Shown here piece after piece: positions 13,880 through 16,316 of a stretch of 64,000 nt of DNA. Within the stretch, counting starts at the first letter, position 1. Each line of letters opens with the position of its first letter. The stretch lies in NCBI GenBank assembly GCA_030153785.1, contig JASKLF010000001.1, forward strand, positions 128,001 through 192,000. The letters are read 5' to 3'. The notes under the pieces are model-generated. The model saw only the letters and a list, made by a program, of their open reading frames with translations. It had not been told where the DNA came from and did not search any database. Made by a program: the position numbers and the translations under genes. This DNA is from a bacterium (GTDB lineage: Bacteria; Synergistota; GBS-1).

Positions 13880-13969
13880 GCCGAGATGGCGGAATTGGAA
13901 GACGCGCCGGACTCAAAATCCGGTGGGGTTGAAAGCCCCATGCGGGTTCGACTCCCGCTCTCGGCACCA
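13880..13969 (+). tRNA. tRNA-Leu(CAA)
   Basis: GCCGAGA/TCTCGGC acceptor stem, anticodon arm CCGGA-CTCAAAA-TCCGG, long variable arm, GGTTCGACT T-loop, encoded CCA. Confidence 0.96.
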
Positions 13970-13991: not shown

Positions 13992-15230
13992 CTATGAGCT
14001 AACTATCCTCTTAGCCTTCCCAGCCGTTCTTTCAATACTCCCAGGGGGAAGAAGCTTGAGGTCCACCGTGATGCCAAGCCTTGCTTTTAAAGCTCTGGAA
14101 ACTCTTTCCGTCAACTCCTCTATGCTTCCACTAAACCCGTTAGAAAGCTCGCACCTTACTTCAAGTCTCTTAAGGTGCTTCCTCTCACCAACCACAAGCT
14201 GATAGTTTAAGCTTAACTCATTGAAGCTTCCCAAAACAGACTCTATCTGCTTGGGGAAGACATTAACCCCACGAATTATAAGCATATCGTCGCTCCTTCC
14301 CTTTATTCTATCTATCCTGTAGCCGTAAACGCCACAAGGACACTCACCATTTACAAGCCTTGTGATGTCACGCGTCCTGTACCTTATCATTGGAGTACCT
14401 TCCCTGTTTAGCGTCGTTAAAACAAGCTCTCCTTCTTTCCCAAAGGGAAGCGGTTTTAGAGTCTCAGGGTCTATTACCTCAACTATGAAATACTCATCGT
14501 TAACATGAAGTCCGTTTTTATATTGACATTCCATAGCTACACCTGGACCCCATATCTCACTCAAACCGTATATATCAAGTGCCTTTATCCCCAAGCCCTC
14601 CTCTATCTGAGACCTCATCTCCTCGCTCCAAGGCTCGGCTCCCAAAATACCAAGACGAAGCTTTAATTCGTTTGGAGACACTCCCCTCTCAGCTAAAAAC
14701 TCAGCAAGATAAAGAGCATAGCTTGGGGTGCAAGCCAAAACGGTTGTTCCCAAGTCTTTCATCAATTCTACTTGCCTCTCTGTATTACCTCCCGATACGG
14801 GGATAACACAACATCCCAGCTTTTCCGCACCATAGTGAAGCCCCAAACCACCCGTGAAAAGGCCATAACCGTAAGCAACTTGAACTATATCATCTTCGTT
14901 AACACCTGCTACCTTAAGACACCATGCAACAAGGTTAGCCCATTTTTCTATATCCCCCTTTGTATAACTAACAACAGTAGGCTTACCCGTAGTACCCGAG
15001 GAACAGTGAACCCTAACTACACTCCTTAACTCAGGGGCAGTAGCACCCCAAGGGTATCCTCTTCTCAAATCGTCTTTAACCATGAAAGGAAGATATTGGA
15101 TATCTTCGAGGTTTCTTATATCCTCCGGTTTGATTCCAGCCTCGTCCATTCTCTCCCTATACCAGGGATAGCTCTCATAAGCTCTTCTCACGCTTTCCCT
15201 TAAAGCCGTTAATTTCTCCTGCATCACCAT
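13992..15230 (-). CDS. paaK: Phenylacetate--CoA ligase family protein
   Basis: SSGTTGKP, YGYGLFTGGLG, DIYGLSE, RYRTRD, GRSDDMLIIRGVNVFP, GKAKR. Confidence 0.93.
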   Translation of the reverse strand: MVMQEKLTALRESVRRAYESYPWYRERMDEAGIKPEDIRNLEDIQYLPFMVKDDLRRGYPWGATAPELRSVVRVHCSSGTTGKPTVVSYTKGDIEKWANLVAWCLKVAGVNEDDIVQVAYGYGLFTGGLGLHYGAEKLGCCVIPVSGGNTERQVELMKDLGTTVLACTPSYALYLAEFLAERGVSPNELKLRLGILGAEPWSEEMRSQIEEGLGIKALDIYGLSEIWGPGVAMECQYKNGLHVNDEYFIVEVIDPETLKPLPFGKEGELVLTTLNREGTPMIRYRTRDITRLVNGECPCGVYGYRIDRIKGRSDDMLIIRGVNVFPKQIESVLGSFNELSLNYQLVVGERKHLKRLEVRCELSNGFSGSIEELTERVSRALKARLGITVDLKLLPPGSIERTAGKAKRIVSS

Positions 15231-15250
15231 ACCTCCTTCTACGGATAAGA

Positions 15251-15301
15251 TAAAAACTAAGGGCCGGAGGCTCCTTTTTAAAAAGGAGCCTCCGGCCCTT
15301 A
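15251..15301 (-). terminator. Intrinsic terminator (attenuator) in the paaK leader
   Basis: Perfect 22-bp inverted repeat at 15258-15301 followed by GTTTTT, lying between the promoter and the paaK RBS. Confidence 0.85.
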
Positions 15302-15333
15302 ACTCTCAAAAACCGAGCTTCCCCCACCAGGGG

Positions 15334-15399
15334 TTAAACCGGAGACCCTAAGTAACTAAAGTAAAAAGCAAAGCTAAAAATAATACGACTCCCACCCAT
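15334..15399 (-). CDS. Phe/Tyr-rich leader peptide MGGSRIIFSFAFYFSYLGSPV (21 aa)
   Basis: ATG 15399 to TAA 15334; 4 Phe and 2 Tyr within 9 consecutive codons; its 3' end is complementary to the terminator arm. Confidence 0.8.
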   Translation of the reverse strand: MGGSRIIFSFAFYFSYLGSPV

Positions 15400-15410
15400 C
15401 TTAGTTTTAA

Positions 15411-15439
15411 AGTATACCATTTCAAACAAAGGGCGTCAA
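15411..15439 (-). promoter_or_regulatory. sigma70 promoter for leader-paaK
   Basis: TTGACG-17-TATACT with extended TG. Confidence 0.8.
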
Positions 15440-15443
15440 TACA

Positions 15444-16316
15444 TCAGGAAAGAATTTCTCCCCTCTCGTTTATCACAGCATTATCTAACACCCGTGCCAA
15501 CCCCACATAAACAGCCAAGGCGAGGAGGGTAGGTCCTTTAACTTCTTTAACGCTCTCTAAGGTTTCAGGGTCAACAAACTCTATGTAATCGATTCGCGTA
15601 TAAGGGTGAGAAAGTATGAGCTCCTCCAAATTCTCTTTAAGAATAGCGACATCTTTGACACCAGAAGATATTAGTTCCTTAGCCCTGAGAATAGCCCTAT
15701 AAAGAGAAAGAGCGGAATCCCTTTCTTCTGGAGAAAGATAAACATTTCGAGAACTCATCGCTAAACCATCAGGCTCTCTTACAGTAGGATGGCCAACAAT
15801 TTCAATATCGAGATTAAGATCCTTTACCATCCTCTTAATTACCAAAAACTGCTGATAATCCTTGAGGCCAAAGATACCAACATGAGGTTTAACTATGTTA
15901 AAAAGCTTCAGGACAACGGTAGCCACCCCGCGAAAAAGCCAGGGCCGTGAAATTCCACACAAGGGTTTCGGAAGCTTTTCCACTTCCACATAAGTCTGAA
16001 AACCTTGGGGATACATCTCTTCGGAGGAAGGAACAAATAGCACATCAACGCCAACATCTTCCGCCATTTTTTGATCTCTTTCCAAATCACGAGGATACCT
16101 GTAAAACCCCTCCTTCATGCCGAATTGAAGGGGGTTTACAAATATGCTCACAACCAATTTATCCCCAAGATTCTTACCCGCCTTCATTAAGGCAAGGTGA
16201 CCTTGATGAAAGTAGCCCATCGTTGGAACGAGAACTATCCTCTTACCTTCCTTACGAAAAGCTTCAGCAAGGGAAGACATCTCCTTAACCGATTGTACCA
16301 GTCTAATTTCACTCAT
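15444..16316 (-). CDS. panC: Pantoate--beta-alanine ligase (somewhat divergent)
   Basis: VPTMGYFHQGH, SIFVNPLQF, KDYQQ, GLAMSSRN, RVLDN. Confidence 0.88.
   Translation of the reverse strand: MSEIRLVQSVKEMSSLAEAFRKEGKRIVLVPTMGYFHQGHLALMKAGKNLGDKLVVSIFVNPLQFGMKEGFYRYPRDLERDQKMAEDVGVDVLFVPSSEEMYPQGFQTYVEVEKLPKPLCGISRPWLFRGVATVVLKLFNIVKPHVGIFGLKDYQQFLVIKRMVKDLNLDIEIVGHPTVREPDGLAMSSRNVYLSPEERDSALSLYRAILRAKELISSGVKDVAILKENLEELILSHPYTRIDYIEFVDPETLESVKEVKGPTLLALAVYVGLARVLDNAVINERGEILS

Follow-up and report, generated by a model that had tools for sequence, protein, structure and literature searches.

The amino-acid attenuators of enterobacteria (trpL, pheL, pheM, hisL and ilvL) combine a short ORF rich in cognate codons, an antiterminator overlapping the end of this ORF and an intrinsic terminator, and are switched on by starvation. 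The trp and his attenuators also possess a protector hairpin, which not all attenuators do. In methanococci, an aryl-acid route runs via IOR. Such a route to aromatic amino acids is stated for Methanothermobacter and proposed for Bacteroides, where an AMP-forming ligase encoded beside IOR is an arylacetate-CoA ligase with a proposed biosynthetic role, and the in vivo direction of IOR-type enzymes is still argued from gene neighbourhood (PMC13285125, in the sections considered here). The RNA motif PBC-10 was described from 53-58 examples in Synergistetes, located mostly before ilvH and phenylacetate-CoA ligase genes and also before amino-acid transporter genes (PMC6429828, Stav 2019). The parts of that paper considered here report a terminator, alternative structures, a palindrome near the origin of P1 and several copies per genome; the founding region is placed by its table just before a phenylacetate-CoA ligase gene, and Thermovirga lienii was among the genomes scanned. 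Its authors cautiously proposed the binding of a protein dimer, allowed for another mechanism and called the ligase catabolic. The same source lists F-Y-F attenuator candidates, namely uORF-12 and uORF-13 (Bacillota) and aroR (Corynebacterium) (PMC6429828).

The locus described here lies within a window of 64,000 nucleotides (contig JASKLF010000001.1, positions 128,001 to 192,000) from a member of the Synergistota. The leader of its PaaK-like ligase gene (Table 1) is real and conserved and, with a probability of about 0.85, a Phe-sensing, ribosome-dependent transcription attenuator.

Table 1. Features of the ligase leader and its surroundings in the window
Feature	Position	Strand	Basis or remark
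Sigma-70-type promoter TTGACG-17-TATACT with TG extension	15411..15439	-	sequence; 10/12 consensus
Leader ORF, 21 codons, no Shine-Dalgarno	15334..15399	-	homologous ORFs before 71/90 sampled ligases
Sensor codons F8-S-F10-A-F12-Y13-F14	15358..15378	-	F-x-F-Y-F kept in 3/3 orthologues of the window copy
Antiterminator 5' strand, within codons 18-21	15337..15348	-	partner 15297-15286
Two small hairpins inside the antiterminator helix (15333-15322, 15319-15301)	15301..15333	-	predicted fold only
Intrinsic terminator, stem of at least 20 pairs and U-rich tail	15252..15303	-	stem 15303-15256
Ribosome-binding site of the ligase gene, AGAAGGAGG	15232..15240	-	sequence
PaaK-like AMP-forming aryl-acid CoA ligase, Gly128/Ala166/Ile220 'Phe-type'	13992..15224	-	profile and structure matches

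The promoter was found exactly as a sequence-only reading of this DNA had given it, with TTGACG at 15439-15434, a 17-nt spacer and TATACT at 15416-15411. The consensus match alone is weak, the scan yielding two promoter-like sites vs 1.5 in shuffled sequences; a TTGAC + TAnnnT box lies 10-14 nt upstream of the leader ATG in 6/6 same-family leaders, and this spacing is kept also at same-family loci lacking panC upstream. Confirmed likewise was the leader ORF lacking a Shine-Dalgarno sequence, which starts ∼5 nt downstream of the predicted transcription start and is translated as MGGSRIIFSFAFYFSYLGSPV, followed by a stop codon. No Shine-Dalgarno precedes any of the 6/6 leaders of the window's family, which we assume to be translated nonetheless; a strong one is present in 55/65 leaders outside this family. 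Judged from the sequence, the ligase start codon is most likely ATG 15224, because ATG 15230 is only 1 nt away from GGAGG. The ligase gene is probably transcribed alone and apparently monocistronic, since the upstream gene on the same strand is panC, ending at 15444, and a convergent tRNA-Leu gene (13880-13969) lies beyond. Independent public sequencing runs (four compared, all of them contigs and three probably of DNA) span the leader with zero differences, and it is therefore not an assembly error. Among 49 uORF-plus-terminator candidates found genome-wide, only three contain at least six F/Y codons within nine (the window leader, that of a second ligase on C7 and one before a TRAP transporter operon on C4), so the window leader is more than a chance occurrence.

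Twelve contiguous pairs had been claimed between 15348-15337 and 15297-15286; both sequences are as quoted, and duplexfold pairs 11 of the 12 positions, at -19.7 kcal/mol. The terminator, whose 5' arm is the antiterminator partner, was also recovered, its stem alone folding at -41.5 kcal/mol. The fold of the whole window leader has z = -4.7, with 0/200 shuffles equally good. Folding with a ribosome mask, a check that the sequence-only reading had suggested, discriminated between the aromatic codons: the antiterminator is lost with the ribosome stalled at Y16 but retained with it at F8-F14, and the working sensor is therefore F-S-F-A-F-Y-F. The four Phe and two Tyr codons counted earlier within nine codons are all present, but the sensing cluster ends at F14 and Tyr16 is outside it. 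The antiterminator starts 9 nt past F14, an offset shared by both orthologues, in which leader position 16 is occupied by Cys or Trp. In our model the window copy would thus be mainly Phe-sensing. Of the Phe/Tyr sensing originally put forward, the Phe part stands, but Tyr would fall mainly to the leader of the paralogous second ligase, although Y13 may contribute a weaker Tyr response. The F/Y cluster, ORF, antiterminator and terminator, sought in the orthologous leaders, were all found to be kept.

In equilibrium folding the full terminator always outcompetes the antiterminator once it is transcribed, and the switch must therefore be kinetic. The trp/phe/his layout attributed to the locus holds as regards ORF, antiterminator and terminator, but no default-off protector state appears at equilibrium. 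Leader RNA that is not translated is predicted to adopt the antiterminator instead of the terminator. The default state would thus be on, and termination would become possible only when a ribosome translates the ORF to its end. With no protector state in equilibrium folding, mutation of the ATG should therefore yield read-through.

The proposed mechanism comprises three steps. The first, a series of promoter, leader ORF, antiterminator and terminator, appears directly in the sequence. In the second, taken from folding predictions, a ribosome waiting at F8-F14 would free 15348-15337 for pairing with the 5' arm of the terminator, whereas one advancing to codons 18-22 would cover this strand and allow the terminator to form; scarcity of charged tRNA-Phe would switch the aryl-CoA ligase on, and the specificity of the scaffold, a module distributed across the phylum, would be set by the codons located 6-9 nt before the antiterminator. 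In the third, which we infer, the ligase would convert phenylacetate to its CoA ester, IorAB would carboxylate this reductively to phenylpyruvate, and an aminotransferase would yield Phe. The second ligase, with its Tyr-rich leader, would serve the same route for 4-hydroxyphenylacetate.

Of 201 genomes of the phylum (probably Synergistota), 122 yielded a ligase match with an E value of at most 1e-100. The named loci closest in identity come from 'bacterium GBS-1', which GTDB places in this phylum, and the matches include a Synergistaceae MAG. The upstream regions of 99 distinct ligases were examined; this is not a random sample, being drawn from 30 loci, 60 regions mostly from the best of 150 matches listed, and 20 further regions. 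Four automatic ORF calls (L023, L063, L089, L095) were discarded as spurious and five leader starts were set by hand. A leader ORF with a terminator precedes 73/99 of these ligases (71/90 of the Phe/Tyr type and 2/9 of the Trp type). The 19/90 leaderless Phe/Tyr-type ligases include seven from one genus with the ligase inside an iorAB operon, one cut by a contig end and one with an insertion. At L073, the site before the first ligase that holds the leader in relatives is taken up by an insertion, which we take to resemble the end of a group II intron.

The antiterminator starts 6-9 nt past the last aromatic codon in 59/71 leaders, the 12 others including two automatic misassignments and the window itself, for which the script anchored on Y16. 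This distance roughly equals the stretch of mRNA covered by a ribosome downstream of its A site. The duplex between a leader's own antiterminator and terminator averages -19.9 kcal/mol, vs -14.0 in shuffles and -16.0 with the terminators of other leaders. It is better than the cross mean in 60/71 leaders, and only 37/71 duplexes are significantly more stable than shuffled versions of themselves (p ≤ 0.05). Once the register is optimised, core pairs exchange between G-C, G-U and A-U, and between C-G and U-A; on the unfitted alignment covariation is modest (87.8% paired; score 0.225 vs 0.189 in shuffles, 13/500), and a one-column slide of the alignment scores higher (0.259). When transcripts were folded as far as the terminator loop, the antiterminator formed in 71/71 with a ribosome at the last aromatic codon and, at equilibrium, in 65/71 with no ribosome; with a ribosome at the stop codon it is masked by construction.

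Rfam returned nothing at threshold for the window except two tRNAs, with nothing relevant below threshold, and nothing for 20 homologous loci; the window leader did not score at or near threshold for Phe_leader (RF01859), T-box (RF00230) or riboswitches. At 78 named loci outside the phylum, no such leader was found by ORF scan, nor by further scans (Rfam, n = 20; leader/TRAP-repeat scan, n = 46; RNA model on a subset), which is a weak test, as these are mostly Bacillota iorAB-ligase operons with a Trp-type motif, i.e. mostly another ligase clade.

An RNA model (R1) was built from 41 leaders. It has no notion of reading frame and is mainly a sequence model, because the RNAalifold consensus caught only 8 pairs. 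R1 matches occur in 57/121 genomes. Among 61 matches examined away from known ligase loci, all but one show an ORF that extends into the motif, and these 60 ORFs are rich in aromatic (23, one ambiguous), Ile/Leu/Val (ILV; 24), Ile (11) or Met/Cys (2) codons. The gene for the acetolactate synthase small subunit (ilvN) lies downstream of 14/24 ILV leaders (eight were scanned, giving seven clear calls and one with the ACT domain only, and the rest were called by near-identical N-termini). The window genome itself carries an ILV-rich leader on this scaffold before ilvN-ilvB-ilvC-leuA (L211, G000:C1:11324-11456, -). Of the 11 Ile leaders, three precede threonine dehydratase and seven the gamma subunit of a 2-oxoacid:ferredoxin oxidoreductase. 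One leader with Tyr codons is followed by tyrS, one with Phe/Tyr codons by aroB and one with Met/Cys codons by the gene of a MetQ-like protein. Known biosynthetic genes behind leaders with cognate codons thus serve as internal controls for the 'on when starved' logic.

Aromatic leaders were also detected before sodium:solute symporters and unassigned membrane proteins, and several ILV matches are not followed by any obvious cognate gene (L201, L203, L209, L214, L223, L231); the first four, all within one family, are possibly orphaned. A single 22 kb contig carries an ILV leader before ilvN on each strand (L224, L225); the two are identical and reflect either a duplication or an assembly artefact. 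Runs of five to six Ile codons stand before four-subunit 2-oxoacid:ferredoxin oxidoreductase operons at L207, L215, L221, L243, L247, L248 and L251, which suggests that isoleucine is made there from 2-methylbutyrate by reductive carboxylation. In the window genome, a dctPQM TRAP transporter operon, a candidate importer of 4-hydroxyphenylacetate, lies behind a terminator and a leader containing nine Tyr codons (L092, G000:C4:101623-101733, +); R1 does not match this leader, which is perhaps built on another scaffold.

The window ligase scores 510 bits against TIGR02155, below the cut-off of 646, and its nearest solved structures are the phenylacetate-CoA ligases 4r1l, 2y27 and 2y4o (E about 1e-118 to 1e-121). 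The second ligase of this genome is 73% identical to it, carries Ser128/Thr166/Cys220 and is preceded by a Tyr-rich leader (L002, L094; G000:C7:154953-155021, -). Across the sample, at least two Tyr codons occur in the leaders of 33/33 Ala/Ser-128 ligases and of 2/38 Gly-128 ligases, one of them the window's, residue 128 having been picked after the data were seen. It lies within a stretch that we take to be the PaaK1 pocket. Ala/Ser-128 ligases fall into three separate clades; a single clade was rejected with p-AU 1e-67, for a group named after the data were seen and on a quick tree. The substitutions G128A/S, A166T and I220C/S accompany Tyr-rich leaders in all three clades. A Gly/Phe ligase on a long branch inside the largest Tyr clade (L064) is an apparent reversal, in which A166T and I220C/S revert. 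All four independent pairs (4/4) change in the same direction, too few for significance (p = 0.125), and tandem paralogues in one genus have F-S-F vs Y-S-Y leaders. Many Ala-128 leaders also contain Phe codons, and the sole ligase of one genome (G002) appears to be Gly-128 with a mixed F/Y, Tyr-rich leader (L250 and L005, joined via a 21-nt contig overlap); specificity is therefore probably graded.

In a third ligase clade, two members are preceded by W-W-W leaders whose scaffold is a different one. At L098 and L099, W-W-W leader ORFs and hairpins flanked by GAGCC repeats were observed before ligases of this clade (motif GLWTAG), and these leaders are candidates for the control of an indoleacetate-CoA ligase. 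At L100-L103, spaced NAG repeats and a terminator resembling a TRAP (MtrB) site precede iorA-iorB-ligase (Trp type); the TRAP-repeat score is significant in 3/4 by the loose version and in none by the strict one. The mtrB gene is present in 5/5 genomes tested, including that of the window.

That the window leader RNA is the PBC-10 motif is very likely, judging by phylum, targets and features as described and not by sequence. The loci analysed here share with PBC-10 the Synergistetes, the ilvH, phenylacetate-CoA ligase and amino-acid transporter targets, several copies per genome, a terminator, alternative pairing and a GGG-W-CCC core, which would correspond to the palindrome reported at the base of P1. 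The sequence-only reading, which was not aware of a characterised attenuator of this type, thus needs amending as regards the RNA, although its mechanism had been left open (PMC6429828, in part). We lean, by a narrow measure, towards a broader reading in which PBC-10 serves the whole phylum as an attenuator programmed by codons. Its sensor codons would have co-evolved with enzyme specificity at each ligase shift, and its leaders would read out both substrate and direction of unstudied enzymes and reveal acid-salvage anabolism. At each ligase duplication and shift from phenylacetate to 4-hydroxyphenylacetate (three origins and one reversal), the leader would have exchanged Phe for Tyr codons. 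The general scheme would turn phenylacetate into Phe, hydroxyphenylacetate into Tyr, indoleacetate into Trp and, via the Ile-leader 2-oxoacid:ferredoxin oxidoreductase, 2-methylbutyrate into Ile.

Given the attenuator, it is quite likely that the ligase is anabolic and serves Phe synthesis and not phenylacetate degradation. AMP-forming ligases favour thioester formation. The iorAB genes, for which a search elsewhere in the genome had been advised, are present: IorA is above cut-off in the window genome, iorB adjoins it, and the pair has no leader and is unlinked to the ligase. PaaA/C (PF05138) was not found in 5/5 genomes tested, and a search for an ADP-forming acyl-CoA synthetase was negative for the window genome and two relatives but positive for two others. 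Chorismate synthase was not found in 23/45 ligase-bearing genomes vs 3/16 without the ligase (related genomes not being independent), and is kept in 22/45 of the former. Two genomes that each consist of one contig and carry the leader, the ligase and IorA show no aroC, pheA, tyrA or aroA above cut-off. In the assembly of the window genome (95.7% complete), an aroA-like gene of two relatives is cleanly absent within a contig (G000:C13 near 137200), and the main aro cluster is absent together with its whole neighbourhood, a third ligase included; pheA and tyrA are present. In five families, iorAB is located downstream of a gene for a YbgC-type acyl-CoA thioesterase (L093, L106-L111), an enzyme that might liberate aryl acids if the pathway ran fermentatively.

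An attenuator that is real but controls a ligase scavenging or detoxifying aryl acids, or feeding some other pathway under amino-acid starvation, is unlikely, though it has the most to be said for it among the alternatives. IorA, best known as a fermentative enzyme, occurs in 59/61 genomes, ligase-bearing or not; the iorAB of this genome lacks a leader and follows the acyl-CoA thioesterase gene; shikimate genes are kept in close relatives; and the ligase is below the PaaK cut-off. On the other hand, the scaffold obeys a starvation logic before ilvN, ilvA-like, aroB and tyrS genes, Phe, Tyr and Trp leaders precede three ligase types, no epoxidase was found (five genomes), and the benzoyl-CoA reductase/dehydratase family gives only weak partial matches in the window genome. 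A simple terminator of the panC transcript next to a chance U-rich ORF deserves almost no credence, even though panC, encoded by this strand, ends at 15444 and U-rich DNA reads as Phe: a promoter precedes the terminator, the ligase ribosome-binding site follows it directly, loci that lack panC upstream retain the element, and at least two aromatic codons occur in the other two frames of only 9/71 and 11/71 leaders, frame 0 having been the frame picked in choosing the leaders.

The nucleotide-level conservation of the antiterminator core, which is nearly palindromic, and the missing Shine-Dalgarno in the window's family would suit the proposed protein-binding element (PMC6429828, in part), in which a dimer on palindromic GGG-W-CCC blocks the terminator and the ORF is incidental. 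We consider this improbable, as a single protein cannot account for codon runs that differ according to the gene that follows, 55/65 leaders outside the window's family have a strong Shine-Dalgarno, and the core is conserved because it pairs with the terminator arm. It is very improbable that the leader is a ligand-sensing arrest peptide, whose G-[AV]-G-P or G-S-P past the aromatic run stalls the ribosome on an aromatic compound. The first motif recalls the SecM arrest motif RAGP, and Gly at +4 (60/71) and Pro at +5 (56/71) are common, but the third positions are fixed for every residue (Ala GCG 29/30, Val GTG 24/24, Thr ACG 7/7, Pro only CCC/CCT), Gly is sometimes replaced by Asp and Pro by Ser, and L030 carries the motif downstream of its stop and in another frame; the constraint is therefore on the RNA. 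A SecM/TnaC-type arrest leader was rejected, there being no peptide-level conservation with free synonymous positions.

The attenuation mechanism itself is classical and found in textbooks. The new points are that a leader peptide explains PBC-10, that a whole family differs by swapped codons, and that sensor codons repeatedly agree with ligase residues. No publication describing a leader-peptide attenuator before paaK was found (subscription papers lay outside the coverage), and the leader analysed here is not described in the parts considered of PMC8632094, PMC9413887, PMC4498308, PMC8388817, PMC5817080, PMC11497795 and PMC13186573. If true, the attenuator reading would settle how an orphan RNA motif from the literature works, and would move a gene widely annotated as 'catabolic' to biosynthesis in anaerobes, many of them without chorismate synthase. 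Because each gene comes with its own sensor codons, substrates could be predicted from the leaders for ligase paralogues (with the three named residues), transporters and ferredoxin oxidoreductases. The leaders would also predict the in vivo direction of IOR-type enzymes.

Compared with known systems, the window leader resembles trpL, pheL, pheM, hisL and ilvL in its cognate-codon ORF, its antiterminator overlapping the ORF end and its intrinsic terminator. The ORF is conserved, the terminator lies between leader and gene, and by folding and spacing the antiterminator is exclusive with the terminator and free when a ribosome occupies the sensor codons; a protector hairpin giving termination without translation does not appear in equilibrium folding. 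Unlike the enterobacterial attenuators, it has no Rfam match, a predicted default of antitermination, an aryl-acid CoA ligase as target, one scaffold carrying Phe, Tyr, Ile, ILV or Met/Cys codons, and no Shine-Dalgarno in its family. The F-Y-F candidates uORF-12, uORF-13 and aroR also have a Phe/Tyr-rich ORF before a terminator but, compared by their description in part of the source, occur in other phyla and target shikimate genes and amino-acid transporters. The closest solved structures belong to PaaK of the aerobic paa pathway, PaaK1/PaaK2 of Burkholderia cenocepacia and the Bacteroides thetaiotaomicron ligase 4r1l; unlike paa-pathway PaaK, the window ligase is below the TIGR02155 cut-off, with no paaA/C found and no paa operon. 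As in the methanogen IOR route, a putative AMP-forming arylacetate-CoA ligase would be combined with IorAB, whereas here the ligase and iorAB are unlinked and the ligase is duplicated into Phe and Tyr types, each with its own attenuator. In contrast to the protein binding put forward for PBC-10, in a paper whose sections considered here mention no leader ORF for the motif, a leader ORF with cognate codons would here explain it.
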